DNA of 64,000 nt from Candidatus Altiarchaeota archaeon (GTDB taxonomy: Archaea; Altiarchaeota; Altiarchaeia; IMC4; SCGC-AAA252-I15). The number at the start of each line of letters is the position of its first letter. The stretch's first letter is position 1. Positions 18,007 to 38,179 of the stretch are shown one piece after another. Both the position numbers and the translations under genes were made by a program. The notes beneath the pieces were generated by a model. It saw only the letters and a program-made list of their open reading frames with translations, did no database searches and was not told the DNA's origin. The stretch is taken from NCBI GenBank assembly GCA_043800705.1, contig JAZDMS010000010.1, positions 128,001 through 192,000 on the forward strand, read 5' to 3'.

Positions 18007-19734
18007 TTATTTGCAGTCTCCGAATATGCACCTGTTCGTGTACTTGGTGTGCAGCAGCTTGTGGGCGCGCTCTGATCCGAATTCGCCGAGGTAATCCTTG
18101 TAAAGCTGCAGCACTGCGGGGTTCTGGTGGCTCTTTCGGAGCATCTTCCCCTTGTCCTCTATGTTCAGGGCCTCGGCCCTTTTCGCGAGTATCTCCTTCC
18201 TGTGGGGCGTCGGCTGGCCGCCTCCCCCGACGCATCCGCCGTAGCAGGCCATGATCTCGATGAAGTGGTAGGGGCTTTTGCCGTCCTTTATCTGGTCCAT
18301 GAGCTTCCTCGCCTCCCCAAGGGTGTGGACGACGCAGATCCGCACCTCCTTGCCTGCGAGGTTCAAGGTCGCCTCCTTCATCGTCTCCATGCCGCGGACA
18401 GGCAGGTATTCGACATTGGAGAGGTCCTCCCCGGTCACCATGTCGGCGACGGTCCTGAGCGCGGCCTCCATGACGCCTCCTGAGCGGCCGAATATGTCGC
18501 CCGCCCCGGTCGCGATGCCCATGGGGTTGTCGAACTTGGACGGCTCCAGGTTGAGGAAGTCTATGCTGTACTGCTTGATGAGCTTCGCAAGCTCGACCGT
18601 CGTCAGCACATAGTCCGCCTCTCCCGCGAACTCGGGCCTCTGTATCTCGAACTTCTTCGCGGTGCACGGCATGATGTCTATGAGGACGATGTCCTTCGGG
18701 TCCTTCCCTATCTTCTCCGCGTAGTAGGTCTTGATGAGCGACGCCATGATGGCCTGCGGGCTGCGGCAGCTTGACATGTGGTTGAGCTGGTGGTAGAAGA
18801 ACTGCTCCGCGAACTTGATCCATGCGGGGCAGCATGTGGTTATCATCGGCAGGTCGCGGTTCTCCCTGAACCTCTTCACGAACTCCGTCGCCTCCTCGAC
18901 GATGGTTATGTCCGCCGCCATGTTGGTGTCGAATACCTTGTGGAAGCCGATCTCCCGCAATGCGGCCACCATCTGGCCGGTGACCGGGGTCCCGGGAGGC
19001 AGGCCGAACAGCTCCCCCAATGCGGCCCTTATGGACGGCGCCGTCTGGACTATGAGGTATTTGTCGGAGTTGAGGGCGTCCATGACCTCGTTGATGCTGC
19101 TTCGCTCCGTCAGGGCGCCTGTCGGGCATGCGACGACGCATTGGCCGCAGTTGACGCAGGAGCTTTCGGCCATGTTCATTTCGAGGGCGGGGCTGACTTT
19201 GGTGTCGAATCCGCGGTTTCTGAGGCCTATCGCGTAGACGGTCTGGATCTTGTTGCAGACCTGGACGCACTGCTCGCAGAGGATGCAGCGGTTGTTGTTC
19301 CTGACGATGGAGACGCTGGAGAGGTCCACTTCGCTGTCGCGCTTCTTGCCTGCGAACGGCGTGTCGGTGATCATGAGGTCGTGGCAGTACTGCTGCAGGC
19401 GGCATGTGAGGTTCCTCGGGCATACTACGCAGTTGAGGTCGTGGTTGGCAAGGAGCAGCTCGAGGTTCATCCTCCTGGCCTCGAGGACCCTCGGCGTGTG
19501 GGTCTTGACCTTCATGCCCTCTGCGACGGGCGTGCAGCATGAGGCTATGAGCCTGGGGGCTCCTTCGACCTCGACTATGCACATCCTGCATGCGCCGATG
19601 CGGTCGAGGCGGCGGTTCCAGCAGAAGTGGGGTATGTCTATCTTGTTCCTCCTGGCGACGTCGATGAGCATCTCCCCCTCTTGGGCCTCGACAGTCTGAC
19701 CGTTCAGGGTTATCTTCACGGTCCTATTTTCCAC
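18007..19734 (-). CDS. hydA: group A [FeFe]-hydrogenase catalytic subunit
   Basis: H-cluster motifs TTCCPAW, MPCTAKKFE, EIMACYGGCVGGGGQP; N-terminal [2Fe-2S], His-ligated [4Fe-4S] and 2x[4Fe-4S] motifs. Confidence 0.97.
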   Translation of the reverse strand: MENRTVKITLNGQTVEAQEGEMLIDVARRNKIDIPHFCWNRRLDRIGACRMCIVEVEGAPRLIASCCTPVAEGMKVKTHTPRVLEARRMNLELLLANHDLNCVVCPRNLTCRLQQYCHDLMITDTPFAGKKRDSEVDLSSVSIVRNNNRCILCEQCVQVCNKIQTVYAIGLRNRGFDTKVSPALEMNMAESSCVNCGQCVVACPTGALTERSSINEVMDALNSDKYLIVQTAPSIRAALGELFGLPPGTPVTGQMVAALREIGFHKVFDTNMAADITIVEEATEFVKRFRENRDLPMITTCCPAWIKFAEQFFYHQLNHMSSCRSPQAIMASLIKTYYAEKIGKDPKDIVLIDIMPCTAKKFEIQRPEFAGEADYVLTTVELAKLIKQYSIDFLNLEPSKFDNPMGIATGAGDIFGRSGGVMEAALRTVADMVTGEDLSNVEYLPVRGMETMKEATLNLAGKEVRICVVHTLGEARKLMDQIKDGKSPYHFIEIMACYGGCVGGGGQPTPHRKEILAKRAEALNIEDKGKMLRKSHQNPAVLQLYKDYLGEFGSERAHKLLHTKYTNRCIFGDCK

Positions 19735-21367
19735 TTTTACCCCCCGGTTTAAGGTTTTTGCAGACCCCCGTGCGGCAGGTCTTCTTGACGACGTGTTCGG
19801 CGTATTCCTCCATGAAGTAGTTCATGGTCGACAGTATCGGGTTCGGCGCAGTCTGGCCGAGGCCGCAGAGCGAGCAGTCCTTTACGAATATCGCGAGCTT
19901 CTTGATGGATCCGAGGTCCTTCGGAGTGGATGTGCCGCCCGTTATCTTCTCCATGTATTCGAGGAGGCGGGCGTTGCCTTCCCTGCACGGCGTGCATTTG
20001 CCGCAGGACTCCTCCTTGATGAAGTTCATATAGTATCTTGCTATCTCGACCATGCAGTCCTCGTCGTTGAGGACTATCATCCCCCCGGAGCCGATGATGG
20101 CTCCGAGCTTCGTGACGGTCTCGTAGTCGAGGGGCGTGTCCATGAGGTTCGCGGGTATGCAGCCGCCGGATGGTCCGCCCATCTGCACCGCCTTGAATTC
20201 CGTGCCTTCCAGGGCGCCTCCGCCTATGTCGAACACGATATCCCTCAGCGTCGTCCCGAACGGGACTTCGACGACACCCGCCCTCCTGATCTTGCCGACG
20301 AGGCAGATGGCCTTCGTGCCCTTCGTGTTCTCCGTCCCGACCTTCGAATATTCTTCGGAGCCGATCCTGAAAAGGGTTGCGACGTTCCCTAGGGTGTCGA
20401 CGTTGTTGATGTTCGTCGGCTTCCCCCAAAGGCCGCGCTCGCCCGGGAAAGGAGGCCTCGGCATCGGGTAGCCCCTGTTGCCCATTATCGAGTTCATGAG
20501 GGCGGTCTCCTCGCCGCATACGAACGCGCCGGCCCCCTTCTTGAGCGATATCTCCAGGTTGAATCCCTGCCTGTCGAGTATGTTCTGCCCCAGGAGGCCC
20601 CGGTCCTTGAGGATCTGTATGGCTTGGTTGATCGTCTTGATGGCAAGGGGGTACTCCTCCCTCGTGTAGACGAACGCCTCGTCGGAGCCTATGGCGTACG
20701 CGGCTATCATCATGCCCTCGAGGACCCTGAACGGGTCGCTCTCAAGGAGGGTGCGGTTCATGAACGCGCCGGGGTCGCCCTCGTCGCCGTTGCAGACGAG
20801 GTACTTCTTCCCCTCCCTCTTCGAGATGATGTCCCACTTCTTCCCTGCAGGGAAGCCTGCGCCTCCGCGGCCCCTCACCTTCGAGTCCAGGACGTATTTG
20901 ATCACCTGCGCAGGCTCCATCGACAGGGCGCGGTCGAGGCCCTTGAACCCCCCTGAGGCGACGTACTGTTCCAGGCTCAGAGTATCGATTATCCCGCAGC
21001 TTTCCATCACCAGCCTCTTCTGCTTCTTGTAGTAGTCTATGTCCAGGAGGCTGTGGCCGACGAGGCAGCTGTCGTAGGTTCCGCCATACTTTATGGATGA
21101 TATGAGCTCGTCGACGTTATCCTTTACTATGTGGGCGTATATCGAGTTTGTTCCGTTCTGTTTCACGTTGACTATCGGCTCGTTATAGCACATCCCGGAG
21201 CAGCCTACGGGGTCCACGGGGATGCCGAGGTCCGAGTGCCTGAGCTTCTCCAGGACCGGCATCGCGCCCGCAGATATGCCGCATGTTGCGACCCCGACGG
21301 TAATCCTGTCCCCGGCCAGGTGCTTCTCTGCCTTCTCAGGGTCTATGATATCTGTTATCGTCTTCAT
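19724..21367 (-). CDS. hydB: NuoF-like diaphorase subunit (HydB/HndC-like)
   Basis: GRGGAGFP, NGDEGDPGAFMNR, GAGAFVCGEET, GGPSGG, ESCGKCTPCREG, CSLCGLG; N-terminal thioredoxin-like Cys domain. Confidence 0.95.
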   Translation of the reverse strand: MKTITDIIDPEKAEKHLAGDRITVGVATCGISAGAMPVLEKLRHSDLGIPVDPVGCSGMCYNEPIVNVKQNGTNSIYAHIVKDNVDELISSIKYGGTYDSCLVGHSLLDIDYYKKQKRLVMESCGIIDTLSLEQYVASGGFKGLDRALSMEPAQVIKYVLDSKVRGRGGAGFPAGKKWDIISKREGKKYLVCNGDEGDPGAFMNRTLLESDPFRVLEGMMIAAYAIGSDEAFVYTREEYPLAIKTINQAIQILKDRGLLGQNILDRQGFNLEISLKKGAGAFVCGEETALMNSIMGNRGYPMPRPPFPGERGLWGKPTNINNVDTLGNVATLFRIGSEEYSKVGTENTKGTKAICLVGKIRRAGVVEVPFGTTLRDIVFDIGGGALEGTEFKAVQMGGPSGGCIPANLMDTPLDYETVTKLGAIIGSGGMIVLNDEDCMVEIARYYMNFIKEESCGKCTPCREGNARLLEYMEKITGGTSTPKDLGSIKKLAIFVKDCSLCGLGQTAPNPILSTMNYFMEEYAEHVVKKTCRTGVCKNLKPGGKSGK

Positions 21368-21807
21368 TTATACCCCGCCAAGACCTTGTCGACCTTCTCC
21401 TTGGTCAGCTGTCCGAAGACTTCCTCGTCTATCATCATGCTCGGCGCGTATGCGCAGGCTCCGAGGCAGTTGACGGATTCGAGCGTGAATAGGCCGTCCT
21501 TGGTCGTCTCCTTATCCTTTACGCCGAGCTTCTCCGAGACGTATTCATGGATGAGGTCGGAGCGCCTCACATGGCATGCCGTCCCCGAACAGACTTTGAT
21601 GACGTGCTTCCCCGACGGGATCAGCTTGAAGGCCGCGTAGAAGGTGACGACTCCGTAGATGTCGACTATCGGGATCTTGAGCCTCTGCTCTATCCTTCGC
21701 ATGTTCTCCTCGGAGACGTAGCCGAAAGTCTCCTGGATATCCTCCAAGACGGCGATGAGGTCGGAACGGCCCGAATACTTGGCGAGGATGTCGTCCACGG
21801 AAGCCAT
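21364..21807 (-). CDS. hydC: NuoE-like [2Fe-2S] subunit (HydC/HndA-like)
   Basis: YGVVTFY, VCSGTAC, NCLGAC. Confidence 0.95.
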   Translation of the reverse strand: MASVDDILAKYSGRSDLIAVLEDIQETFGYVSEENMRRIEQRLKIPIVDIYGVVTFYAAFKLIPSGKHVIKVCSGTACHVRRSDLIHEYVSEKLGVKDKETTKDGLFTLESVNCLGACAYAPSMMIDEEVFGQLTKEKVDKVLAGYK

Positions 21808-21887
21808 GCTTAACCAATTGCGATTGCTAATAAAAATACGCCTACTTGGAGACCCGCTTATAATCTGATTCGCATAATAAGGTTCCG

Positions 21888-22973
21888 ATGCAGCTGAAGA
21901 AAACGCCGCTTTGCGGTACTCACGAAAAACTCGGCGCCAGGATGGTGGACTTCGGAGGATGGTACATGCCGGTCCAGTACTCCGGCGTGGTCGAAGAGCA
22001 TAACGCCGTCCGCAACGAAGCAGGCCTTTTCGATGTCAGCCACATGGGCGAATTCGACGTCCAAGGGGCGAAGGGCGAGGCGTTCCTGAACAGGCTCGTC
22101 GCGAACGACGTCTCGAAGATGGCAGACGGCATGTGCCTCTACACCCCGATGTGCTACGAGAACGGCACCATAGTCGACGACCTCATCATCTACAGATACG
22201 ACGGGGAACACTACCTGCTTGTGGTCAACGCTGGCAACATCCAGAAGGACTGGGACTGGGTCAACAAGAACAACAAGGAGGGCGTCATGCTCCGAAACGA
22301 CAGCGACAAGACCGCGGAAGTCGCGATACAGGGGCCAAAGGCCGTTGGAATACTGCAGATGCTCTCCGACTACGACCTGTCGACGCTGAAGAAGTTCAGG
22401 TTCGCCAAGATGAAGGTCGCGGGGATCGGTGCCCTCGTCTCGAGAACGGGATACACCGGAGAGGACGGCTTCGAAATCTACGTCGACAGCGGTAAGGCGG
22501 TCAAATTGTGGGACGCGCTCATGGAGGCGGGGGAAGGTGTCCTGAAGCCAGCTGGCCTCGGTGCAAGGGATACGCTCCGCCTTGAGTCCGCGATGATGCT
22601 CTACGGCAACGACATCGACAATACGACCACCCCCATAGAGGCCGGCATAGGATGGACTGTGAAGCCCGAAAAGGGGGAATTCATCGGGAAGGCCGTCGTC
22701 GGCAAACAGAAGGCGGAAGGCACTAAGAGGCGGCTAGTCGGGTTCAAGATGGTCGGGCCAGGCATAGGGCGCCACGGCTACGAAGTCCAGATAGGCGGGA
22801 AAACCTCTGGAAAGGTCACATCCGGAACATACAGCCCGACGCTGAAGACGGCGATTGGGCTCGCATACCTGCCGGTAGAGAACTCGACAATAGGCTCGGA
22901 GTTCGACGTGATGATCAGGGACAAACCGGTGAAGACGGTCGTCGTGGAGACGCCGTTCATAAAGAAGAAATAA
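21888..22973 (+). CDS. gcvT: glycine cleavage system T protein
   Basis: FGGWYMPVQY, FDVSHMGE, SRTGYTGEDGFE, GLGARDTLRLE. Confidence 0.97.
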   Translation: MQLKKTPLCGTHEKLGARMVDFGGWYMPVQYSGVVEEHNAVRNEAGLFDVSHMGEFDVQGAKGEAFLNRLVANDVSKMADGMCLYTPMCYENGTIVDDLIIYRYDGEHYLLVVNAGNIQKDWDWVNKNNKEGVMLRNDSDKTAEVAIQGPKAVGILQMLSDYDLSTLKKFRFAKMKVAGIGALVSRTGYTGEDGFEIYVDSGKAVKLWDALMEAGEGVLKPAGLGARDTLRLESAMMLYGNDIDNTTTPIEAGIGWTVKPEKGEFIGKAVVGKQKAEGTKRRLVGFKMVGPGIGRHGYEVQIGGKTSGKVTSGTYSPTLKTAIGLAYLPVENSTIGSEFDVMIRDKPVKTVVVETPFIKKK

Positions 22974-23010
22974 AGCCGTTATTTAATTCTGCCGGTTGCG
23001 ATATTTAACC

Positions 23011-24519
23011 ATGGCCGGTGTGGTCTTTGAAAAATCCCCCTCTGAAGGCGGACTCCTCAAGGACCTGTCGTCCATGTTCGCAATGCTTGCGGCATTTTTG
23101 CTCCTGTTTTGCTCGATTTTATTCGGAGTGTTCGGGGATCGCCCTCTGGAGACCGGTATCACATACTCTCTCGCCTCCATTTTTGTTTTCAGCTTCATCT
23201 CCCTCGCCGCCGTCTCGGACATATACGACCTGAAGCTGGGAAGGTTCGGAATGAACAACGTCGTCTTGTCGTTTGTCTCGGGAATAATGTTTCTTGTTTC
23301 AGCCAAGGTCGCCGGACCGCTGGCTTCAGGCATCCTTTTCTCCCTGACGTTCGTATTCTACTTCGCCTGGAATTCCCTCTCATTTTCCGCCAGGAACAGG
23401 AGGGTTGCATCGTTCGCAAAAAAATACAGGCTTGCTGTCAAAGACGGGGGAGTATTCGGCATGTCGTCTGTCAGAGGATCTGTCGGCGGGAGGATGTTCA
23501 AGGGTTCCTTCAACCCGAAAAACAGGCTTGCGTATGCGGGATCGTATCATTCCTCCGTCTACGAGGTCGAGATCGGGACCCGCGCATATAAAGGGGCAGC
23601 ATTCGCCGTCTACCGGAGCATGACGCCGATAGGCGCAGGAGAAAACATGCTCTCCAGCATGGCGGGATACGGCGAAGGCTTCGGAGAGGGCTCGCTCAAG
23701 CTCGTGGCAGGATTGAATCCGATTTGGCTAAGATACAACCAAGTGGGGGTTCCCGCGGCCATCGAAGCCAAAAAAGAATCGCTGATATCGTGTATGGGGC
23801 TCGCAGGGCTCCTGAGGATAAGCCTGAAGGACGGCGTCCTGAAGGCCGAGGTCCGCGCAGACATGGCCGAATCGCTGCCGCAGATAGCTTACTGGCTTGG
23901 AGAGATCGCCAAGGCGGCGGATGGCATCGCCTCATCGGACAATATGGTGCCCTCAGAAGAGACGAAGTCCATTATACTCCCTAAGACACTGAAAAGCCTC
24001 ATATACGGCGCAGCCGTGATTATGCTTGGAATCTTTGCCGTATTTTTCCTCTTCTTCGGCTGTATGCTCGCATTCTTCGGCTTCAACGTCATTGACTCCC
24101 TCGGCGACAGGCCTAATCCTACGGGCGCCTTCGAGTGCGAATCCAAATGGCTCTTCACGGAAAGCAACGAATGCTTCATGGAGCTTGCGTTCAGGCAAAA
24201 GGATCCCTCCTTGTGCGCCAGGATGTCGCCGGTTGAAAGCTCGTCCTTAAGGAAAGACACCCGCCTCGGGGAAAGGGGGTACATGATAGGCAGGACCTAC
24301 TGCTACTTTTGGCTGGCGAAGGACACCGACAATCCCGAATTGTGCAAAAGGATAGTCGGGAAACGGTCGCAGGAGCTCTGCGTCGCAGAGGTTGCAAGAT
24401 CGAGAAAAGACCCGTCGTTATGCAAAGGGATGGAATACCTGAACGTGCGCGGCTGGTGCCTCGACGCCAGCACAGGCAAGCTCCCCCTGAAAGACCGGCC
24501 GCCCATGTTCCTCGATTGA
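23011..24519 (+). CDS. membrane protein with C-terminal Cys repeats
   Basis: About 5 TM; three C..xA...D/NPxLC repeats. Confidence 0.7.
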   Translation: MAGVVFEKSPSEGGLLKDLSSMFAMLAAFLLLFCSILFGVFGDRPLETGITYSLASIFVFSFISLAAVSDIYDLKLGRFGMNNVVLSFVSGIMFLVSAKVAGPLASGILFSLTFVFYFAWNSLSFSARNRRVASFAKKYRLAVKDGGVFGMSSVRGSVGGRMFKGSFNPKNRLAYAGSYHSSVYEVEIGTRAYKGAAFAVYRSMTPIGAGENMLSSMAGYGEGFGEGSLKLVAGLNPIWLRYNQVGVPAAIEAKKESLISCMGLAGLLRISLKDGVLKAEVRADMAESLPQIAYWLGEIAKAADGIASSDNMVPSEETKSIILPKTLKSLIYGAAVIMLGIFAVFFLFFGCMLAFFGFNVIDSLGDRPNPTGAFECESKWLFTESNECFMELAFRQKDPSLCARMSPVESSSLRKDTRLGERGYMIGRTYCYFWLAKDTDNPELCKRIVGKRSQELCVAEVARSRKDPSLCKGMEYLNVRGWCLDASTGKLPLKDRPPMFLD

Positions 24520-24556
24520 CGGGCGATTTAAATTCTCCCTCCCATATCTCCACCGT

Positions 24557-25441
24557 ATGGACCTCCTGACGCAGCTGGAGTACGACGGCAAATGGGTGAA
24601 AGGCGTAATAGGCGACGCGAAAAAGCTGAAGAAGGGTGGAAAAAGATACAGCGAATCCCTCGAAGGGAGAGTCCTCACAATGCTGTTCATGAAGAACTCC
24701 ACCCGCACACGCGTCAGCTTCGAGGCAGGGTTCGCGCAGCTCGGAGGCCACGCCATCTTCCTCGACTGGCGGACGACCAACTTCGACAAAGGCTCGCTCA
24801 GGGACGAGATCAGGTGCCTGGACAGATACAGCGACATAATCATGGCTCGCGTATTCCGCCACCAGGAAATCGTCGACATAGCCGACGCAGCCGAAGTCCC
24901 GGTGATAAACGGCCTCTGCGACACATACCACCCCTGCCAGGCCCTCGCGGATGTAATGACCATATATGAAAAGCTGAAGAGATACAAGTTCAAGCTCGCA
25001 TACACAGGCGACGGCAACAACGTATGCAACTCCCTCATGATAGCGTGCGCCAAAGTCGGGGCCGAGATGTCGGTCGCGACGCCGAAGGGATATGAACCCG
25101 CAGCAAACGCCGTCAACTATGCAAAGACACACGGGACACTCACACTCACCAGCGACCCCAACGAGGCCGCCAAAGACGCTGATGTCGTATACACCGACGC
25201 ATGGGTCGGCCTCGGCCAGGAAGGGGAAAAAGACAGGCGGATGAAGGCCTTCGCAGGCTATACCGTCACGAAGGAACTCCTAGGCGACGCCTACTTCATG
25301 CACTGCCTGCCCGCCGTCCGAGGACTCGAAGCGACCGACGAAGTCCTCGACAGCGAGAAGTCGATAATCTACGACGAGGCCGAGAACCGTATGCATGCCC
25401 AAAAGGCCGTGATGCTGAGACTCCTTCGTAAAAAAATCTGA
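24557..25441 (+). CDS. argF: ornithine carbamoyltransferase-like transcarbamylase
   Basis: STRT, HPCQ, GDGNNV, HCLP, EAENR; the SMG loop is replaced by VGLG. Confidence 0.85.
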   Translation: MDLLTQLEYDGKWVKGVIGDAKKLKKGGKRYSESLEGRVLTMLFMKNSTRTRVSFEAGFAQLGGHAIFLDWRTTNFDKGSLRDEIRCLDRYSDIIMARVFRHQEIVDIADAAEVPVINGLCDTYHPCQALADVMTIYEKLKRYKFKLAYTGDGNNVCNSLMIACAKVGAEMSVATPKGYEPAANAVNYAKTHGTLTLTSDPNEAAKDADVVYTDAWVGLGQEGEKDRRMKAFAGYTVTKELLGDAYFMHCLPAVRGLEATDEVLDSEKSIIYDEAENRMHAQKAVMLRLLRKKI

Positions 25442-25499
25442 CCACCAAGAGGCGATAGAATTTCCGCTATTTTAAGCTCAAATATCCTGTTTGTGTTCG

Positions 25500-25994
25500 A
25501 TGGAAAAGCCCACCCATGTGAAGTTGATGGGCGCGTTGGTTTTTTTGATAGTGTTGGTCCTGTCCGTCATCATAATCGTTGCGGTCTTCACGAAGTATGG
25601 GGATTCGGAGACGTTCCGGATGGACTGGTGGTTTTCCCCGGGCCCCCAGGTCACGACCACCTCGGTGACCGTGTCAACTACGACAACGACGCAGCCGGCC
25701 TCTACGACGTCGTCGACGAGCACCACGACGTCATCCACGTCTTCGACGCTGCATTCGGGGAACAGGAGCCTCAGGATCCCCGACCTGCCGAAGCCGGAGC
25801 TCATAGGCGACCTCGATAACAACCTCGGCAGGATATTCGTAAACAAGTCGATCGTATTCAACGAAACAGGCGGCCTAAGCCGCATATCCGGGACTGTGCG
25901 GCAGCTTGTCGAGATCGACGAAGCAGACATCGGAAAATACGATGGGGACGAGATATACCTCCAATACTGGAACGGGACGTGGGTACGTCTGTGA
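25500..25994 (+). CDS. membrane-anchored Thr/Ser-rich protein
   Basis: N-terminal TM followed by a poly-Thr/Ser linker. Confidence 0.7.
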   Translation: MEKPTHVKLMGALVFLIVLVLSVIIIVAVFTKYGDSETFRMDWWFSPGPQVTTTSVTVSTTTTTQPASTTSSTSTTTSSTSSTLHSGNRSLRIPDLPKPELIGDLDNNLGRIFVNKSIVFNETGGLSRISGTVRQLVEIDEADIGKYDGDEIYLQYWNGTWVRL

Positions 25995-26032
25995 TAAGGA
26001 AAAAATGTGGGGGATATCACCCCCAACATCCT

Positions 26033-28241: not shown

Positions 28242-28320
28242 GATGTCTTATTCGCTTAGTTGATTTAAAATGTTGAGGGTTTAATTATATTACTATCTTT
28301 TACTATAGTCTTTTTAGTGG

Positions 28321-29202: not shown

Positions 29203-29586
29203 ATGGAGTATCCAAACGAGCTGAAATATACCAAGGACCATGAGTGGATCAGGATCGAAGGCGATGTGGCCGTCGTCGGAGTGACCGATTATGCGCAGCA
29301 TGCGCTCGGCGATATCGTATTCGTCGAACTGCCAAAGGTGGGCGCGGACGTAGTCAAAGGCAAGGGTGCCGGCGTAGTCGAATCGGTCAAGTCGGTCTCC
29401 GACGTCTTCTCCCCCATAAGCGGGAAGGTCGTGGACGTGAACAAGGCGCTGGAATCCAGCCCCGAGACGGTCAACAAGAGCCCGTACAGGGACGGGTGGA
29501 TGTTCAAGGTCAAGGTCTCAGACAAAAAGGAGCTGGAGACCCTGATGGATTCGAAGGATTATCAGAAGCTTGTCGACAAGAAGTAA
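29203..29586 (+). CDS. gcvH: glycine cleavage system H protein
   Basis: YTKDHEW, GVTDYAQHALGDIVFVELP, VESVK (lipoyl Lys), PY.DGW. Confidence 0.97.
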   Translation: MEYPNELKYTKDHEWIRIEGDVAVVGVTDYAQHALGDIVFVELPKVGADVVKGKGAGVVESVKSVSDVFSPISGKVVDVNKALESSPETVNKSPYRDGWMFKVKVSDKKELETLMDSKDYQKLVDKK

Positions 29587-29587
29587 G

Positions 29588-30883
29588 ATGCATTACAACC
29601 CGAACAGCCCGCAGGAGCGGGAACAGATGCTCAGCCGCGTCGGTGCTAAAAAAGTAGAAGACCTGTACGCCGACATACCCGAAGGCGTGAGGCTGAAGGG
29701 CGGATTGAGGCTGCCCAAGGGGTTGAGCGAGATGCAGCTGCGCCGGCACATGGGCGAACTTGCCGGGATGAACCGGGTCAGGACGTCGTTCCTCGGCGCA
29801 GGCGCATACGAGCACCACATCCCCTCCGCAGTCGGGCATATGGTCGGCAGGAGCGAATTCTACACCGCCTACACCCCCTACCAGGCCGAAGTCAGCCAGG
29901 GAGTTTTGCAGGCGCTGTTCGAATATCAGAGCATAATGTGCGAACTAACCGGTCAGGAGGTCTCCAACGCCACCTTATATGACGGGGCCACGGCGTTGGC
30001 GGAGGCCTCCGTCATGGCGCACAACATAACAAAGCGCAATGAGATCCTCGTCTCCGACACGCTTCACCCGGAGTACCGGATGGTCTTGAAGACCTACTGC
30101 GAAGCCGGCGGCTTGGAGCTGCGGGTTGTCGCCTCCGGTGACGGCACATCGTCGAACCTTGTTCCCACGGAAAAGACCGCGGCGGTCGTGATCCAGAGCC
30201 CGAACTTCTTCGGCATAGTGGAGGACTCGGATGCGCTCCAGAAGAGGGCGCATGAGATGGGCAGCCTCCTGATAGGGTGCGTCGTAGAGGCCGCGTCCCT
30301 CGGGATGCTGAAGCCGCCGCCTGCGGACATCGTCGTCGGGGACGGCCAGTCATTCGGGAACCCGGTATCTTTCGGGGGCCCCACGTTCGGTTTCCTGACG
30401 ACAAGCATGAAATACGTCCGGCATGTGCCCGGGCGGCTGGTGGGGGAGACCGCCGACTCGGACGGGAAAAGGGGATATGTTCTCACCCTCCAGGCCAGGG
30501 AGCAGCACATCCGCAGGGAGAAGGCGACCTCTAACATATGCACCGCGCAGAGCCTCTGCGGCATCGCGGCAGCGGCCCATATCGCGCTATTGGGGCCGGA
30601 AGGCCTGAAGCGGATGAGTATGAACTCCCACAAGAATGCCGTATACCTTGCCGGAAGGCTCTCGAAGCTCAAAGGTTTCTCCTTGGTCTACAAGAAGCCG
30701 TTCTTCAACGAGTTCGTCCTGCGCTGCCCTGAAGGGACTTATGGGAGGCTTCGGACGGCGGGGTTCACACCGGGCCTGGAACTCGGAAGGTTCTATCCCG
30801 GGCTCAAGGGATGCCTCCTGTTATGTACGACGGAGGTCCACTCGAAGTCCGAGCTGGACGCGGTCGCGGAGGCGCTGGGATGA
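29588..30883 (+). CDS. gcvPA: glycine dehydrogenase subunit 1
   Basis: [31 protein letters not shown]. Confidence 0.96.
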
Positions 30884-32322
30884 ACACGCTCATGGAGGAT
30901 TCGGTGAAGGGACGTGTCGGCGTGCTCCCTGCCGAGTCGGAGGTCGACGTCGCGGTCGGCGTCCCGAAGGCGATGCTCAGGGATTCGCTGAGGCTGCCGG
31001 AGCTGGGCGAAGTCGACGTCGTTAGGCACTACACTAACCTCTCCAGGCTGAACTTCGGCCTCGACACGGGATTCTACCCCCTTGGTTCCTGCACGATGAA
31101 GTACAATCCGAAGGTCAACGAGGACGTTGCGCGCCTTGACGGATTCTCCAGGATCCATCCCTACCAGGACGAGAGTGATGTCCAGGGTGCGCTGAAGGTC
31201 ATGCACGGGCTGGAAAAGGCATTGTGCGAAATAACGGGCATGGATGCCTTCACCCTGCAACCGTCGGCGGGCGCCCACGGGGAATTGGCGGGCGTGATGG
31301 TGATAAGGGCGTATTTCACGGACAGGAGGCAGGAGCGCAGGAAGATCCTGGTGCCTGACTCCAGTCACGGCACGAATCCGGCGACAGCCGCATACTGCGG
31401 ATACGAAGTCATCACGATTAAGTCGAAGGAGGACGGGAACCTCGACCTCGACGACCTGGCGGCCAACATGTCTGAGGACGTGGCCGGCCTCATGCTCACC
31501 AACCCGAACACACTGGGGCTTTTCGACCGAAACATATCCAGGATAACGGAGATAGTCCACGCGAAGGGGGGGCTCGTCTACTATGACGGGGCTAACATGA
31601 ACCCGATCATGGGCTTCGCAAGGCCTGGCGACATGGGATACGACCTAGTCCACATAAACCTGCACAAGACCTTCTCCACTCCGCACGGGGGCGGCGGGCC
31701 CGGTTCGGGGCCGGTCGGGGTCGTGAAGGCTCTTGCCCCGTATCTGCCAGTCCCGAGGGTGGTCGAGAAAGGCGGCAAGTATTCCTTGTCCTATGATGCG
31801 CCGAAGTCCATCGGGAAGGTGAGGGCGTTCCACGGCAGCTTCGGGATAATCGTCAGGGCGTACGCATACGTCATGGCGCTGGGGGCGGAGGGCTTGAAGG
31901 ACGCGAGCGCCCAGGCGGTGCTGAACGCGAACTACCTGATGTCGCTTCTGAAGGGCCACTATGACCTTCCTTTCGAGCGCGTGTGCATGCACGAGTTCGT
32001 GCTTTCCGGGCGGAAGCAGGCGTATGAGTACGGCGTGCACACCCTCGACATAGGAAAGCGCCTCCTAGACTACGGGTTCCACGCCCCGACCATATACTTC
32101 CCCCTCATCGTGGAGGAGGCGATAATGATCGAGCCGACGGAGACTGAGAACAAGGCTACCCTGGACGGATTCGCAGAGGCAATGATCGAGATTGCCGACG
32201 AATGCCGGACTGCCCCTGATACTGTGAAAGCCGCGCCCCAAAAGACGCCGGTCAAGAGGCTCGACAACACGCTTGCCGCTAGGCATCCTGTGCTTTCCTG
32301 GAGCCAGACACGCAACAAGTGA
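30880..32322 (+). CDS. gcvPB: glycine dehydrogenase subunit 2
   Basis: [34 protein letters not shown]; ATGA overlap with gcvPA. Confidence 0.96.
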
Positions 32323-32356
32323 CCGGATATTAATTCCTGCTCGGATAGTATTAGGG

Positions 32357-34618
32357 ATGGGAAAAAGACCGGATATGTCGGGCCTGATCAGGCGGTATTC
32401 TCCAGTCTTCCTTCTCCTGGCTTTCGCGGTCCTGGGCTCGTACTTCGTCGTCTACAGCGGGCCTACAGGCGGAGGCCTGTCCTGGTTCTTCTCATCCGAT
32501 CCCGGCTGCGGAAGAGACTACTGGATGGACGGCAACTGGTCGAAGGCCAGTATCCCCTACGTGTCGGCTTCCCCTCCAAAGAACTCATGCTTCATCGGGG
32601 TCGGGCCGGTGCCCGAAAATCTCGTGGTCAGGGCTGAAGACCTGGTGACGGCAGCATTTGCCGACGGGAACAGGATATATTCTAATACGGCGGGCAATAT
32701 GCGCTGCGTCGACTGCGCAGGCAGGCAGATCAACGTTGGGGAAGGGCATGGGTGGGTCCTTTTCGACGTCGCCAAATTCGGCGGCATGCTGCGTTTCGAC
32801 GCATATCCCGTGAAACCGACGCCTGAGGTCCAGATCATCGCATTGGCGCTGATCATCGCATTCCTCCTTATCACCCCTGAAGGGACGTTAAAGCGGGCGT
32901 CGACCGTCGCGGCCGTGGCCTTCCTCGCGGGCGTATCGTTCCTTCTGCCTATATATGAGAACGTCGGATACTGGGGGCGGGGGGACTGGGATTACGTGTT
33001 CACCAATATCGCGGTGGTGGGAAACGTCCTGATGCAGCAGCATCAGCTGCCTTTCTGGAACCCATACCTCTGCGGAGGTTCGCCGCTGCTCGGGTTCCCG
33101 GGATGGATAAAGGCGGATCCCTTCCTGATCGTCCCTTTCGTGCTGGGTGTTGTCGCCGGCGTGAAGGTCAATCTCCTGCTTTTCACGATGGTCGGAATGT
33201 TCGGGTGCCATCTATTGGCCTCCTTTCTTAGGATCAGGACAATATCGCGCTATCATCTGTCTGTCGTCTTCATGTTTAGCGGGTTCTTCGCCTACAGGCT
33301 GTATGAAGGTCACTACCAGTATTTTGCGCTCATGTACCTGCCCTACATCACCCTGTTTCTCCTGAAATCGTTCAACGACCTGAGGCATGCGCTGGCGCTC
33401 TCCCTGTTTATAGCATTATTCGTCCTATTCGCGCATCCGATCATGGACGTGTTCCTGGGGCTGTTCCTCGCCTCCATATCCGTCGCAGAGGCTGCCGTCA
33501 CGGCTTCCAGGAGGGGCGCATCGAAACCATGGTGGAGGCCGTTGGCAGCCCCGGCAGTCGCGTGCGGACTTGCATGCCTGCTTCTGGCATTCCTCCTCTT
33601 GCCGGAACTCGAATTTTCCCTCTTGCATCCAAGACAGCTTATAGAAAAGCTGCTTCCCGACTTCGACATTCAGCTTCTATACTCTTCGCTTGCCAGGGCT
33701 CCCACCGATCCGTTGGTTCCGAAGTGGTGGGGCTGGCATGAGTTCGGCGGCTTCATAGGCATACCCGCACTCATGCTGTCGTTTTTCGGATTCGTTGCAT
33801 CGCTGCGCAGAGGGGGACTGTTGGGGCCGGCTGTCGCCCTCGTCGTCTTCCTCCTTATCATCCTCGGATCAAACTCCCCTTTCGACCTGTGGGGTTTGTT
33901 GCATGATCTGCCGATGGTTCACTCGCTTCGCGACCCCGAACGGGGGATAGGTTTCGTTGTATTCATCCTGGCGATATATTCCTCCATCGGCCTATCCGGC
34001 CTTGAGGGGCGGTTTCCCCGCATTGCCAATGTGGTTTTCGCAGCATCGTTCGCCCTCATTTTCCTGTCGAACACCCAACTGCTATACGGCGTGTTCGGCG
34101 TCATACCCTACGATGTCGCGGGATCGGCTGATGGTTTCCGTCAGATAAAGTATCCGCTCACGCAGGGGGCGTACTCCAACATGTACCCCTACATAGGCGC
34201 CGGGGTCGGCTTGACGAATTGCTATTCTTCCGGGCTCCTAGAGCGGCGGACGACATCCGATACTCAGCAGGCGTACCGGGGCGAGGCATATCTCCTCGGA
34301 TCCAGAGGGACCGCTGCATTGTCGGCATTTTCCCAGAATTCGTTCACCGTGGACGTCGATGCCGCCGGCGACGACCTGCTAATAGTCAACCAGAACTATG
34401 AGCAGAATTGGAGAGTAGAAGGCGGCTTTGTCAGGGAATACAAGGGCCTCATCGCAGCCAACGTCACATCAGGGAGGCACCAGATGAGGTTCTATTACCT
34501 GCCTTGGGCCTTCCTTGCAGGTTGCGTATTGAGCATTGCGGGGCTTTTCGCATTCGCATATCTCGCAAGGAAATACGGGCTCGGTCCTTTCCGCCCGGAG
34601 GCGGACGATGGACGGTAG
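32357..34618 (+). CDS. YfhO-like GT-C fold membrane protein
   Basis: GDWD, PFWNPYLCGGSP, EGH, RDPER, NQNYEQNW; many TM; overlaps the lipA start. Confidence 0.7.
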   Translation: MGKRPDMSGLIRRYSPVFLLLAFAVLGSYFVVYSGPTGGGLSWFFSSDPGCGRDYWMDGNWSKASIPYVSASPPKNSCFIGVGPVPENLVVRAEDLVTAAFADGNRIYSNTAGNMRCVDCAGRQINVGEGHGWVLFDVAKFGGMLRFDAYPVKPTPEVQIIALALIIAFLLITPEGTLKRASTVAAVAFLAGVSFLLPIYENVGYWGRGDWDYVFTNIAVVGNVLMQQHQLPFWNPYLCGGSPLLGFPGWIKADPFLIVPFVLGVVAGVKVNLLLFTMVGMFGCHLLASFLRIRTISRYHLSVVFMFSGFFAYRLYEGHYQYFALMYLPYITLFLLKSFNDLRHALALSLFIALFVLFAHPIMDVFLGLFLASISVAEAAVTASRRGASKPWWRPLAAPAVACGLACLLLAFLLLPELEFSLLHPRQLIEKLLPDFDIQLLYSSLARAPTDPLVPKWWGWHEFGGFIGIPALMLSFFGFVASLRRGGLLGPAVALVVFLLIILGSNSPFDLWGLLHDLPMVHSLRDPERGIGFVVFILAIYSSIGLSGLEGRFPRIANVVFAASFALIFLSNTQLLYGVFGVIPYDVAGSADGFRQIKYPLTQGAYSNMYPYIGAGVGLTNCYSSGLLERRTTSDTQQAYRGEAYLLGSRGTAALSAFSQNSFTVDVDAAGDDLLIVNQNYEQNWRVEGGFVREYKGLIAANVTSGRHQMRFYYLPWAFLAGCVLSIAGLFAFAYLARKYGLGPFRPEADDGR

Positions 34619-35441
34619 GAAGCCTCCGTGGCTGAAGGTCAGATTGGGCGGGTCCGGGGAATACCCTCACGTGCACAGCAGCATAAAACGTCACGGCCTC
34701 CACACTGTCTGCGAGGAGGCCCGCTGCCCGAACATGGGTGAATGCTGGGGGTGCGGGACGGCCACCTTCCTGATCATGGGCGAGCTCTGCACCAGAAACT
34801 GCAGGTTCTGCGCGGTGAAGACGGGCGCAAGCGGTTCCCCTCTCGATGGGCGGGAGCCCGCCGAACTGGCGGCCTGCGTCAAGGAACTCGGCATCAGATA
34901 CGCGGTGATCACGTCAGTCGACCGCGACGACCTGCCGGACAAGGGTGCGGGACACTTTGCGGAATGCATCAAGGCCCTGAAATCCACGGGAGCCAGGGTG
35001 GAGGCGCTCATACCCGACTATGCCGGAAAGAGCATCTCAACAGTCGTCGCAGCCGGGCCTGATGTGCTGGCGCATAATATCGAAGTCGTGAAGAGGCTTC
35101 AGGGCCTTAGAGATGCGAGGGCGTCGTATGAGAAAAGCCTGGAGACGCTGCGGCTTGCCAAGACTGAAGGCAGTAGACTGAAGACAAAGTCGTCGATAAT
35201 GCTCGGCCTCGGCGAGACGGATTCCGAGGTGCTTGAGGCGATGGACGGCCTGCGGTCGGTCGGCTGCGACCACCTGACCATCGGCCAGTACCTGCAGCCT
35301 ACGAGGAGGCAGGTGCCTGTGGCGGAGTACGTCAGCCCGGAGAAATTCAGGGAATATGCGGACGCAGCATCTGGCCGGGGATTCAGCAGGGTCGTCTCGG
35401 AACCGCTCGCCAGGACCAGCTACAAGGCAGGGGAAAAATGA
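34608..35441 (+). CDS. lipA: lipoyl synthase
   Basis: KPPWLK, CEEARCPNMGECW, CTRNCRFC, TIGQYLQP, RTSY. Confidence 0.96.
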   Translation: MDGRKPPWLKVRLGGSGEYPHVHSSIKRHGLHTVCEEARCPNMGECWGCGTATFLIMGELCTRNCRFCAVKTGASGSPLDGREPAELAACVKELGIRYAVITSVDRDDLPDKGAGHFAECIKALKSTGARVEALIPDYAGKSISTVVAAGPDVLAHNIEVVKRLQGLRDARASYEKSLETLRLAKTEGSRLKTKSSIMLGLGETDSEVLEAMDGLRSVGCDHLTIGQYLQPTRRQVPVAEYVSPEKFREYADAASGRGFSRVVSEPLARTSYKAGEK

Positions 35442-35845: not shown

Positions 35846-36118
35846 GTGATCGGCAAAGTCGTCCACAAGGTGCCTGGCGGCAAGCTACTGAAAGTCACCG
35901 TCGAACATGACGGGAAGTCCATCCTGAAGGCCAGCATAAGCGGAGATTTCTTCATACATCCGGAGGACTCCGTCGACCGCCTGGAGGCGAGGCTGAGGGA
36001 TGCGAAGCCTCTGGAGGTCGGCAAAATAGTGGAGTCCAGCCTGTCGGGTGCGAGGCTGTTCGGCGTCGACGCAAAATCGATAACGGATGCGATACTGGAG
36101 GCTTACGGTGGAGTGTAG
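35846..36118 (+). CDS. lplB: lipoate-protein ligase accessory subunit (LplA C-terminal domain)
   Basis: KVPGGKLLKV, ISGDFFIHPE. Confidence 0.88.
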   Translation: MIGKVVHKVPGGKLLKVTVEHDGKSILKASISGDFFIHPEDSVDRLEARLRDAKPLEVGKIVESSLSGARLFGVDAKSITDAILEAYGGV

Positions 36119-36860
36119 GTTCATAGACAGCGGCGTGGGTAAGGCATACTTTAACATGGGCCTCGACGAAGCGATCCTGGAGCATGTATCCGATTCCAGA
36201 AGCCCTGCTACGCTGAGGTTTTACGGGTGGGCTCCGCGGGCGGTATCCATCGGATACTTCCAGAGCATGCGGGAGGAGGTCGACGTCGACGCCTGCTTCA
36301 AGGACGGCGTAGATGTGGTCCGCAGGATAACCGGCGGCGGCGCGGTCTATCACGACCGGGAGCTGACATACAGTTACATCGCGAAGGAAGATGCGGTCCC
36401 GGACGACATCCTGGAATCGTACAGGCTCATATGCGGCGGCCTAATCCGCGGATTCAATGGGTTGGGGCTCAAGGCGGAGTTCGCGCCCCTCAACGACATA
36501 CTCTCGGGCGGCAGGAAGATCAGCGGAAACGCCCAGACGAGGCGGATGGGCTGCGTCATGCAGCATGGCACGATCCTCCTTGACGTGGACGTTGATAGGA
36601 TGTTCCGCTACCTAAAGGTCCCGTCTGAGAAGATGCGGGACAAGGCGGTCAAAGACGTCAAGGAGAGGGTCACGTCACTGAAGCATCTGACCGGCAAGGA
36701 AGTCCCCTGCGGGAAGGCGGCCGAGGCCTTCAAGAAGGGATTCGCGGAGGCGTTGAAGCTCAGACTGAAGCCGGCCTCTCCCACACCGTCTGAACTCGCG
36801 CAGGCCCAGAGCCTCGCGGAATGCAAATATTTCACCCTGGAATGGAACGATAAAAGATGA
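36108..36860 (+). CDS. lplA: lipoate-protein ligase catalytic subunit
   Basis: NMGLDEA, SIGYFQ, RRITGGGAVYHD, KISGNAQ, QHGT. Confidence 0.93.
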   Translation: MECRFIDSGVGKAYFNMGLDEAILEHVSDSRSPATLRFYGWAPRAVSIGYFQSMREEVDVDACFKDGVDVVRRITGGGAVYHDRELTYSYIAKEDAVPDDILESYRLICGGLIRGFNGLGLKAEFAPLNDILSGGRKISGNAQTRRMGCVMQHGTILLDVDVDRMFRYLKVPSEKMRDKAVKDVKERVTSLKHLTGKEVPCGKAAEAFKKGFAEALKLRLKPASPTPSELAQAQSLAECKYFTLEWNDKR

Positions 36861-38179
36861 AATACGATGCGATAATAATCGGGGCGGGTCCTGGCGGCTG
36901 CGAGACTGCATTATGGATACACCGCCTTGGGGGGCGGGCCGTACTCGTGGAAAAGGGAGAGGTAGGTGGCGTCTGCACGAACCGCGGATGCATACCCACA
37001 AAGGCCATGGCCTCAGGATGCGAGGCTCTCGATTCGGTAAAGCGTGCGGGGGAGTTCGGCATCGAAACAGGGCAGCCCAAGGTTGACCCGGAAGCCCTCT
37101 TCAAGCGGAGGGACCGCGTATGCCTGACCCTGCGGAAGGGGGTCGAGAAGCTCCTTTCTGACGCCGGCGTCGAGGTGTTCAGAGGCGAAGGCAGAATCAC
37201 GTCTGCGAACACGGTGGAAGCTGCGGGAAAGCCGCTGGAGGGAAAGGCATTGGTCATCGCGACAGGTTCGACGCCCGTAGGCCTGCCGGGGATGGAAATA
37301 GACCACGAATATGTGCTCTCCGGGGACGACGCCGCGACATCGAAGACGCTGCCGAAGGCGGTCGTCATCGTCGGCGGAGGCTTCATCGGATGCGAGTACG
37401 CATCCATCTACGCCAGGCTCGGCTGCAAGGTGACCCTCATAGAAGCATTAAACCGCATCCTCCCGTCGGAAGACGAGGAGATATCTGCGGCGCTGCAGGC
37501 CTCCCTCTCCAAACAGGCCGATATACTCGTCGGCATCAGGGTGGATTCGATAGATAAAAAAGCAAAGGACGTGACTGCGGGCGGCAGACGGATACCTGCC
37601 GACCTCGTTCTCATGGCCGTCGGAAGGCGACCTCTCATGCCCGCAGGCCTCGAAGGGACCGGGGTGGCAGTCGACAGATCAGGGATCAAAGTGGACAAGG
37701 CCATGCGGACCAACGTCGAGGGCGTCTTCGCCGTCGGCGATGCCGCCGCGGGTTTGAAGCTGGCCCACGTCGCCTACGCAGGGGCGGAGGCCGCGGCAAG
37801 GAACATCATGGGCGAGCATTTTGAAGCTGATTTCTCTGCCATCCCATGGTGCGTTTTCACATCGCCGGAGGTCGCGCGCGTCGGCTTGGCGCAGAATGAG
37901 GCGAAGACGCCGGTGCGCACGGGCAGGTCGGAATACATTGAAAACGGGAAGGCAAGATGCCAGGGGGAGCGGGAAGGATTCTGCAAGGTAGTGGCTGACG
38001 AAGCAACTGGCGCACTTATTGGGGTCCACTTCATCGGCGCCCACGCGTCCGACCTCATCGGGGAGGCGTCGCTGGCTGTGCGTATGAAGATGACCTGCCG
38101 AGAAATCGCCAAGACGATACACCCGCATCCCACGCTTTCCGAACTCTTGCCCGAAGCATGCCGCAAGGCCGGTTTCTAA
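36857..38179 (+). CDS. lpdA: dihydrolipoyl dehydrogenase (GCS L protein)
   Basis: GAGPGG, GGVCTNRGCIP, GGGFIG, HPHPTLSE. Confidence 0.93.
   Translation: MKYDAIIIGAGPGGCETALWIHRLGGRAVLVEKGEVGGVCTNRGCIPTKAMASGCEALDSVKRAGEFGIETGQPKVDPEALFKRRDRVCLTLRKGVEKLLSDAGVEVFRGEGRITSANTVEAAGKPLEGKALVIATGSTPVGLPGMEIDHEYVLSGDDAATSKTLPKAVVIVGGGFIGCEYASIYARLGCKVTLIEALNRILPSEDEEISAALQASLSKQADILVGIRVDSIDKKAKDVTAGGRRIPADLVLMAVGRRPLMPAGLEGTGVAVDRSGIKVDKAMRTNVEGVFAVGDAAAGLKLAHVAYAGAEAAARNIMGEHFEADFSAIPWCVFTSPEVARVGLAQNEAKTPVRTGRSEYIENGKARCQGEREGFCKVVADEATGALIGVHFIGAHASDLIGEASLAVRMKMTCREIAKTIHPHPTLSELLPEACRKAGF

Follow-up and report, generated by a model that had tools for sequence, protein, structure and literature searches.

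A group-A3-type [FeFe]-hydrogenase with a shortened HydB subunit near glycine cleavage genes in a small clade of Altiarchaeales

The window analysed here is a stretch of 64,000 nucleotides (G000:C35:128001-192000) from a 2.0 Mb genome of a Candidatus Altiarchaeota archaeon (G000; 43 contigs, 87.55% complete), and it contains a predicted trimeric [FeFe]-hydrogenase operon, hydCBA, that is transcribed divergently from the glycine cleavage gene gcvT. The HydB subunit of this hydrogenase does not carry the C-terminal ferredoxin-like domain of its relatives, and this derived and selectively kept domain loss is the feature of the locus worth following. On balance, it is probable that the hydrogenase and glycine cleavage genes are two intact, separate modules that lie side by side and meet only in the NAD(H) pool, the hydrogenase being an NADH-linked, non-bifurcating variant.

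The hydrogenase operon and the shortened HydB subunit

The operon is composed of three genes on the reverse strand in the order hydC-hydB-hydA, with adjacent genes overlapping by 4 and 11 nt. Protein families were assigned throughout by Pfam and NCBIfam profiles, the latter with their NCBIfam cut-offs. The first gene, hydC (21364..21807), encodes a NuoE-like [2Fe-2S] subunit of 147 aa with a 2Fe-2S_thioredx domain (168 bits) and matches to NuoE-family NCBIfam profiles. The next gene, hydB (19724..21367), encodes a NuoF-like flavoprotein subunit of 547 aa with Complex1_51K, SLBB and NADH_4Fe-4S domains. The final gene, hydA (18007..19734), encodes the [FeFe]-hydrogenase catalytic subunit of 575 aa (Fe_hyd_lg_C, 315 bits; NF040763, 806 bits, cut-off 765), in which Pfam identifies an N-terminal 2Fe-2S domain, a His-ligated 4Fe-4S domain and a 2x4Fe-4S domain, followed by the H-domain and a small-subunit-like tail (Fe_hyd_SSU). 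HydA contains TTCCPAW, MPCTAKKFE and EIMACYGGCVGGGGQP, which we take to be the three H-cluster cysteine motifs. The operon is predicted to encode a group-A3-type trimeric [FeFe]-hydrogenase.

A first-pass annotation of the window, made from its sequence alone, described HydB as truncated, and this is borne out, as the protein stops at residue 547, shortly past the part that aligns to chains of the Protein Data Bank. Its alignments to 9bov_B, 9n5u_B, 8oh5_B, 7t2r_B and 7p5h_B stop at query residue 538-540 (E-values 1e-174 to 1e-156). The solved HydB-type chains run 45-60 residues beyond this aligned end, and the window HydB has eight residues past its last aligned position before it terminates. 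The extended HydB frames of all fetched loci identify the missing piece as a 2x[4Fe-4S] ferredoxin-like domain of approximately 57 residues. No CxxCxxCxxxC motif is present in the tail of the window HydB or nearby.

Two sets of homologous loci were compared, namely 41 HydA loci from the genome collection (19 archaeal and 22 bacterial, with flanks of up to 10 kb) and a metagenome contig scan with HydB from which 80 loci were kept of at least 577 relatives. HydB's C-terminal domain is kept in every other archaeal homologue examined in the genome loci, in most of the bacterial ones and in 72 of the 80 metagenome loci. In the context of a full hydABC set, the domain is absent only from the window (547 aa), the congeneric genome G003 (536 aa) and the metagenome loci L091 (544 aa) and L092 (542 aa), and these are exactly the four lineages with gcvT in the neighbourhood. 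A separately encoded 2x[4Fe-4S] open reading frame (ORF) that could replace the domain was not found near hyd at any of the four loci. Two further HydB-like proteins without the C-terminal domain, L126 and L147 (47-49% identity), were excluded as HydABC: what follows in L126 is just a NuoG-like N-terminal domain and no full HydA, and L147 runs off its contig. Another kind of HydB is found in two Planctomycetales loci (L057 and L068) and two metagenome loci (L127 and L156), where a long extension takes the place of the C-terminal ferredoxin domain and brings the protein to as much as approximately 1028 aa. The extensions of L057 and L068 contain a GxGxxG nucleotide-binding stretch and are GltD/NfnB-like by eye.

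In a tree of concatenated HydB and HydA (33 rows), obtained by a quick search without bootstraps and with the columns of the C-terminal domain kept outside the alignment, the four truncated lineages form one clade with a Shimodaira-Hasegawa-like approximate likelihood ratio test (SH-aLRT) value of 100. This clade is nested within a 16-row Altiarchaeales clade (SH-aLRT 100) among domain-bearing sequences. Because of this nesting a single loss suffices on the tree, which places the domain loss as an event that happened once. The truncated operon also appears to have been maintained for a long time by purifying selection, since the ratios of nonsynonymous to synonymous divergence (dN/dS) in pairwise comparisons within the clade are 0.11-0.12 for hydA (against L091, L092 and G003), 0.13-0.18 for hydB and 0.08-0.13 for hydC at dS values of 0.9-1.5, although dS is close to saturation and the ratios are rough.

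Comparison with characterised and published enzymes

As described by Furlan et al. (2022, PMC9499530), in the part of the paper drawn on here, the HydB C-terminal domain with its clusters B3 and B4 is present in all characterised bifurcating [FeFe]-hydrogenases, is absent from the non-bifurcating NAD+-dependent multimeric ones and is deemed essential. Katsyv et al. (2023, PMC10021017) propose that ferredoxin docks on this domain, with the electrons coming from B4. By the reasoning of these two papers, an NAD(H)-only hydrogenase would be expected in the window because the ferredoxin branch has been lost. In the ancestor of the small clade, HydB lost the C-terminal 2x[4Fe-4S] domain (B3/B4), the proposed ferredoxin-docking branch. 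Electrons would pass from NADH to the flavin mononucleotide of HydB, through the iron-sulphur chain that runs across both HydB and HydA, and on by way of the H-cluster to H2, or in the reverse direction, without ferredoxin. We infer from the domain loss that bifurcation would have been lost with it, leaving a non-bifurcating NAD(H)-linked hydrogenase in which electron flow towards H2 would be possible only at low H2 pressure.

Criteria for non-bifurcating beta subunits are given by Losey et al. (2020, PMC7311640), whose text lists T or S at T. maritima position 232, K, S or A at position 234, Y in place of F, no GGPSG and fewer iron-sulphur domains, and places the non-bifurcating enzymes in a beta-subunit clade of their own. 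The window enzyme resembles these NADH-dependent enzymes in having a beta subunit without the extra C-terminal iron-sulphur domain, and NADH-only chemistry at low H2 would be expected of both. It is unlike them in its residues. The window HydB retains GDPGAFMNR, GAGAFVCGEE and GGPSG (as MGGPSGGC); the A and M of the first motif align to A232 and M234 of the T. maritima chain 7p5h_B, the F of the second is the same as in T. maritima (residue 312 of 7p5h_B by count, against 367 as the number given in the paper for the Phe/Tyr position at the FMN/NADH site), and GGPSG aligns to positions 427-431 of 7p5h_B. The resemblance to the non-bifurcating enzymes would be convergent, because the window HydB has the bifurcating-type A, M, F and GGPSG and is nested among domain-bearing archaeal HydB proteins. 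The window HydB would represent a new route to an architecture similar to that of the non-bifurcating enzymes, outside their characterised clade.

The bifurcating HydABC enzymes with solved structures from Thermotoga maritima (7p5h), Acetobacterium woodii and Thermoanaerobacter kivui share the same three motifs with the window, and residues 40-540 of the window HydB align to 7p5h_B with an E-value of 8e-156; the difference is that the window HydB is without the B3/B4 domain. Nor does the window HydA carry the additional [2Fe-2S] 'bridge' domain found at the C-terminus of the T. maritima enzyme, as the Pfam matches of the window protein end with Fe_hyd_SSU at residue 568 of 575.

Group-A3 HydABC has already been published from 'Altarchaeota', where Greening et al. 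(2024, PMC11216029) took DSAL01 sp011380095 for their model of the complex. The contig with the DSAL01 prefix corresponds to our locus L035, and also to L093, and its HydA and HydB are 78% and 67% identical to those of the window. The DSAL01 enzyme has the same hydC-hydB-hydA operon, the same subunit families and the same phylum-level lineage as the window, and its maturases are, as far as the main text of that paper reports, likewise mostly missing. It differs in that its HydB, like that of all other relatives, carries the C-terminal domain and is 594-601 aa long, whereas the window clade has proteins of 536-547 aa without it; the published DSAL01-type enzyme is predicted to be bifurcating, and no gcv neighbour was seen at the DSAL01 locus. 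The word 'glycine' is absent from the main text of the same paper. A literature search that paired Altiarchaeales-type names with 'glycine cleavage' gave nothing relevant, the only hit being a lipoate-assembly paper in which both terms occur.

Distribution of the hyd-gcvT neighbourhood

The archaeal origin of the window was confirmed with the 16S gene of its genome, which scores 1421.6 bits with the archaeal model and 1092.2 bits with the bacterial model, and with the closest HydA loci. In the species-representative collection, the nearest HydA-encoding contigs, at 74-78% identity, bear the name Candidatus Altiarchaeales or Altiarchaeia, followed by Woesearchaeota and by metagenome-assembled genomes labelled 'Methanosarcinales' (63-71%) and then by bacteria at less than 50%.

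As the first-pass annotation stated, hydC and gcvT are divergent with 80 bp between their starts. Uniqueness to this genome, which the first-pass annotation named as refuting its proposal, is not observed: the adjacency recurs in G003, L091 and L092, all of which belong to one clade with the window. L091 and L092 are the window's two closest relatives among the 80 loci kept in the metagenome scan, with HydA identities of 84.5% and 83.3%. In L091, hydABC is followed after 78 nt by a 265-aa low-complexity ORF and then by gcvT, argF, gcvH, gcvPA and gcvPB. In L092, hydABC is preceded by a Na+/H+ exchanger, with gcvT, a carA fragment, carB and argF following after 62 nt. In G003 the two gene sets are on separate contigs that share an exact overlap of 138 nt, the end of the hyd contig recurring, in the same orientation, as the start of the gcvT contig. 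This 138-mer is found nowhere else in that genome and one MscS-like ORF spans the junction, giving hydA, hydB, hydC and MscS on one strand, then gcvT, gcvH and gcvPA in the divergent direction. The genes hydC and gcvT are directly back to back only in the window; in the other three of the four lineages a gene intervenes, namely the MscS-like gene (G003), the 265-aa ORF (L091) or the Na+/H+ exchanger (L092). An MscS-like gene also lies divergently next to gcvT in the hyd-less genomes G002, G004 and G016, and G015 shows the same, with its HydA match on a different contig. This position of the gene beside gcvT looks like the ancestral state.

Outside this clade the neighbourhood was not encountered. 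No gcv gene is present in the flanks of the 41 HydA loci from the genome collection, and none lies on the same stretch as hyd among the hyd loci of nine relatives that were fetched with flanks. Among the 80 metagenome loci, only L091 and L092 have gcvT nearby. Contig-end joins between hyd and gcvT were sought in G008, G011, G013, G015 and G020, and no overlap of 20 nt or more was found in the parts fetched, a partial test in that several of these loci are not whole contigs. Co-occurrence of the two gene sets, counted over 41 genomes (the window genome and 40 relatives) and over the family subset of 21, is at the level of chance. Of the 41 genomes, 14 have HydA, 15 have GcvT and 7 have both, compared with 5.1 expected under independence; within the family the corresponding numbers are 10, 15 and 7, with 7.1 expected. 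Three of four congeners have gcvT without detectable HydA, and gcvT was not found in 7 of 13 HydA-bearing relatives, genomes of 92-97% completeness among them (G024, 97%; G023, 93%).

A general archaeal synteny of hyd and gcv is therefore rejected, as it was seen at none of the 41 genome loci and at just two of the 80 metagenome ones, and the positives are close kin. The 'supercluster' proposed by the first-pass annotation does not hold across archaea, and the neighbourhood is clade-specific and loosely organised; it is neither an operon nor a general archaeal linkage. Because all four cases form one clade, they are best taken as one inherited arrangement confined to a small clade and not as repeated co-localisation. 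It arose once, in the ancestor of this clade and on the branch that also bears the HydB truncation, and has been inherited since.

Glycine cleavage and lipoylation genes

The first glycine cleavage system (GCS) gene, gcvT (21888..22973, forward strand), encodes the aminomethyltransferase (GCV_T, 323 bits; NF001567, 475.7 bits, cut-off 300). It is followed by an interrupting block (22996..29094) that contains an unknown 507-aa ORF on the forward strand, argF (24557-25441, forward; NF001986, 360 bits, cut-off 306), two unknown ORFs on the reverse strand and, identified by Pfam, transglutaminase-like (26736-28241, reverse) and CN-hydrolase (28321-29094, reverse) genes. Unrelated genes, of which four run on the reverse strand, thus take up the approximately 6.2 kb that separate gcvT from gcvH. 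The gcvH gene (29203..29586, forward, with its true start at 29203) encodes the lipoyl carrier protein of 127 aa (NF002270, 183.5 bits, cut-off 117). Its residue K63, within VESVKSVSD, is invariant in all five aligned homologues, and we take this to be the lipoyl-lysine motif. The next two genes encode the two subunits of the P protein, gcvPA (29570..30883, forward; NF001696, 564 bits, cut-off 364) and gcvPB (30811..32322 as listed, forward; NF003346, 746 bits, cut-off 441). The true start of gcvPB is probably later than listed, because the family alignment begins at residue 25 of the ORF.

The lipoylation genes follow a second interruption, a 781-aa membrane protein (32273..34618, forward) with weak matches to Wzy_C and YfhO, both below cut-off. 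They are composed of lipA (34536..35441, forward; lipoyl synthase, TIGR00510, 328 bits, cut-off 310), an lplB-like gene (35846..36118, forward) for the 90-aa small subunit of lipoate-protein ligase, and lplA (36087..36860, forward) for its catalytic large subunit. The lplB-like match is below cut-off (NF053749, 54.5 bits, E-value 9.6e-15, cut-off 65), and homologues of the gene occupy the same position in G006 and G010; LplA is identified by its LplA-B_cat domain (192.6 bits) and is likewise below the NCBIfam cut-off (191.6 against 480). The final gene, lpdA (36857..38179, forward), encodes dihydrolipoyl dehydrogenase, the L protein (TIGR01350, 443.5 bits, cut-off 408.8). Each of the components T, H, P (alpha and beta) and L is present at a score over its NCBIfam cut-off, and the genes encode a complete glycine cleavage system together with the enzymes for its lipoylation.

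The first-pass annotation had these genes following gcvT as one run; gcvH, gcvPA, gcvPB, lipA, lplB, lplA and lpdA are indeed all located downstream, and the run is not contiguous. The relatives G006 and G010 have the same components as an unbroken gcvT-H-PA-PB-lipA-lplB-lplA-lpdA series, whereas the window set is interrupted twice. G016 is unbroken from gcvT through lipA, where its series ends, and the membrane protein between gcvPB and lipA is absent at that spot in all three. The inserted genes would split the window's glycine cleavage and lipoylation genes into at least two transcription units. The argF gene also follows gcvT in L091 and L092, with carB before argF in L092, and carA follows gcvT in G001. 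These companions look biosynthetic and are more simply read as arginine biosynthesis.

Maturase genes

The first-pass annotation suggested a search for hydEFG, and none of the three was found in the window genome. HydG had no match by profile search in this 87.55% complete genome, and HydF gave only GTPase-domain matches below cut-off there and is over cut-off in none of the 41 genomes. TBLASTN with the HydG of G003 found nothing in the window genome, and with the HydE-like protein of G003 it found only 32% identity over 77 aa. In G003, hydG (572 bits) and the HydE-like gene (247 bits, cut-off 254.6) are located between a 171-aa ORF and thiC; in the window genome the homologues of this ORF and of thiC are 143 nt apart with nothing between them. 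Judged by this gene order, hydG and hydE have demonstrably been lost from the syntenic site. The hydG and hydE-like pair of G003 directly adjoins thiC, and the HydE-like radical SAM protein encoded there (L085, G003:C52, 7560-8882, reverse strand) has an N-terminal HypC/HupF-like domain (48.1 bits, cut-off 48).

Across the order, HydG and HydA track each other poorly: HydG is over cut-off in 4 of the 14 HydA-bearing genomes and absent from the other 10. In three genomes of 92-93% completeness (G001, G014 and G029), HydG is well over cut-off and HydA was not found. Greening et al. (2024, PMC11216029) report in their main text that, of 130 archaeal genomes, 5 have all of the maturases, and they consider maturation by an alternative pathway probable; the missing maturases of the window genome agree with this general lack in archaeal genomes with [FeFe]-hydrogenases.

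These results bear on the proposal of the first-pass annotation that the glycine cleavage system is coupled to H-cluster assembly, in which aminomethyl-lipoyl-H-protein would supply the dithiomethylamine bridge, possibly within the alternative archaeal maturation. The role of the H protein has been published in vitro (PMC11736057 and PMC12752695, as far as drawn on here), the alternative maturation is considered probable by Greening et al., and GcvH of the window has the conserved lysine. However, the known H-protein route needs HydE, HydF and HydG, none of which was found in the window genome, HydG is over cut-off in just 4 of the 14 HydA-bearing genomes, and gcvT was not found in 7 of the 13 HydA-bearing relatives, two of 97% and 93% completeness among them. 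Moreover, the neighbour of hyd is gcvT, with gcvH 7.4 kb away. This coupling received no support from our results and is highly improbable, the weakest of the three models in the first-pass annotation.

The maturase results also raise the question of whether the hydrogenase is a decaying or non-catalytic relic whose maturases are gone, in keeping with the empty hydG-hydE site and with the failure to find HydF. We consider this improbable, as the three genes are intact, the H-cluster motifs are present and dN/dS is 0.08-0.18. The lack of maturases is furthermore the rule in archaeal genomes with [FeFe]-hydrogenases, one of which yielded an active enzyme heterologously according to the main text of Greening et al. 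(PMC11216029).

Folate genes and the relation of the hydrogenase to glycine metabolism

A search for fhs, folD, glyA and fdh, also suggested by the first-pass annotation, was successful for the first three, and the alpha subunit of formate dehydrogenase (Fdh-alpha) had no match in the 87.55% complete genome at E <= 0.001. The fhs, folD and glyA genes are grouped with purH on a different contig, an arrangement suggestive of purine and folate biosynthesis. The glyA gene (serine hydroxymethyltransferase; L089, G000:C20, 15118-16364, reverse strand) is in two overlapping pieces in different frames that cover profile positions 1-129 and 125-399, which points to either a frameshift or a misassembly.

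An H2-driven reductive glycine pathway, in which H2 oxidation would provide NADH for a reversed glycine cleavage system and formate or CO2 would be assimilated through Fhs, FolD and the glycine cleavage system, was the second model of the first-pass annotation. Reduction of NAD+ with H2 is the exergonic direction for a non-bifurcating enzyme, and fhs, folD, glyA and the full glycine cleavage system are all present. With Fdh-alpha undetected, the folate genes clustered with purH and glyA in two frames, this model finds little support and we regard it as quite improbable.

The glycine cleavage system yields NADH and no reduced ferredoxin. The first model of the first-pass annotation, in which NADH from glycine oxidation is vented as H2, fits the loss of the ferredoxin branch. 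In a dedicated glycine-to-H2 module of this kind the hydrogenase would have been retooled, through deletion of that branch, to reoxidise the NADH of the L protein (and of FolD), with its proximity to gcvT under selection, and glycine would be fermented in syntrophy with organisms that consume H2, yielding CO2, NH3, formate or C1 units, ATP (through Fhs) and H2. We hold such a module to be possible, though doubtful. In its favour, the NADH of the glycine cleavage system matches a hydrogenase without a ferredoxin branch, the truncation and the adjacency map to the same branch, the adjacency is retained in all four clade members at dS of approximately 1 or more, fhs and folD are present, argF (plus carB in L092) travels with gcvT, and peptidase genes are also present within the window. 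A precedent comes from bacterial syntrophic acetate oxidisers, which are proposed to combine a glycine cleavage pathway with H2 release of the HydABC type (bioRxiv 10.1101/2021.07.06.451242). In the part of that preprint drawn on here, they are a functional analogue in which the glycine cleavage system and folate enzymes have a HydABC outlet for H2; the enzyme differs in being the confurcating, ferredoxin-using form, and no gene adjacency is claimed. However, the arrangement is one evolutionary event without independent replication, a gene intervenes in three of the four lineages and the gcv set is itself broken up in the window. The three congeners with gcvT and no detectable HydA, the seven HydA-bearing relatives that showed no gcvT, the simpler reading of carAB and argF as arginine biosynthesis and the two frames of glyA also speak against it.

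The favoured reading of two separate modules and a non-bifurcating hydrogenase has several observations to contend with. The neighbourhood has persisted in every one of the four lineages although synonymous divergence is saturated and local rearrangement heavy, and its origin falls on the branch of the HydB truncation; a functional link would predict both. The window HydB carries all of the bifurcating beta-subunit residue signatures of Losey et al., and ferredoxin could be used by another route. In addition, with HydE, HydF and HydG not found in the genome, the maturation of HydA is in question.

Genes flanking the operon and elsewhere on the contig

The intergenic region between hydC and gcvT (21808..21887, 80 bp) contains two A/T-rich boxes, each approximately 20-30 nt upstream of one of the divergent start codons, which are putative back-to-back archaeal TATA boxes. 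On the other side of the operon, a lower-GC island (12536..17989; GC content 0.46-0.51) encodes a PMT_2 glycosyltransferase, a GT2 glycosyltransferase and two B12-binding radical SAM proteins. The latter are encoded by divergent genes (15177-16565, reverse, and 16625-17989, forward) whose best NCBIfam matches are HpnJ/BchE-like and far below the cut-offs. This pair beside hydA was considered as a hidden HydE/HydG and ruled out, the proteins being B12-binding and HpnJ/BchE-like. The island may be a laterally acquired cassette for lipid or glycan modification.

The island, of approximately 5.6 kb, parts hydA from a gene for a multi-pass membrane protein of 173 aa (11891..12412, forward), which in relatives abuts hydA or hydC. 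The region around hyd has clearly been rearranged repeatedly. The 173-aa protein has no Pfam match, even at E <= 1, and no NCBIfam match. A homologue is located beside hydA or hydC in 12 of the 19 archaeal loci (L035, L036, L039, L040, L042, L044-L047, L051, L069 and L075) and in none of the 22 bacterial loci. By Atlas features the protein is related, with a score of 0.93, to a cluster that bears the name '[Fe] hydrogenase, HymD subunit family' and has ECF_trnsprt, an ECF-transporter S-component family, on 11% of its members; we take this as a lead only. In a host without HydEFG, a transporter-like hydrogenase partner of this kind is worth attention.

Upstream in the window, a type III glutamine synthetase is encoded at 5537-7645 on the forward strand (GSIII_N, 253 bits). 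The sole match in the genome resembling a [NiFe]-hydrogenase large subunit is outside the window on the same contig (G000:C35:47107-47310), where 68 N-terminal positions match at 47 bits within a 394-aa frame.

Significance of the shortened HydB

The view that the HydB C-terminal domain is essential for bifurcation rests on distantly related enzymes. The Altiarchaeales sequences offer a natural experiment, as near-isogenic orthologues (HydB 62-69% and HydA 74-78% identical) differ in just this domain. A comparison of the truncated and full-length orthologues bears both on the need of the domain for ferredoxin coupling and on the diagnostic value of the residue criteria. The window is, in addition, a further example of an intact [FeFe]-hydrogenase for which the maturase genes have demonstrably been lost from their syntenic site.

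In a stronger version, which we consider rather unlikely, the clade would have turned a bifurcating-type HydABC into an NADH-only enzyme by one clean deletion in HydB with its other signatures kept, and with the glycine cleavage system this enzyme would form a glycine-fermenting, H2-evolving module that operates without HydE, HydF and HydG. With two separate modules, as we favour, any metabolic coupling would run through the NAD(H) pool. The glycine cleavage neighbourhood supplies a concrete hypothesis for the role that an NADH-only [FeFe]-hydrogenase may have in these uncultured sediment archaea.

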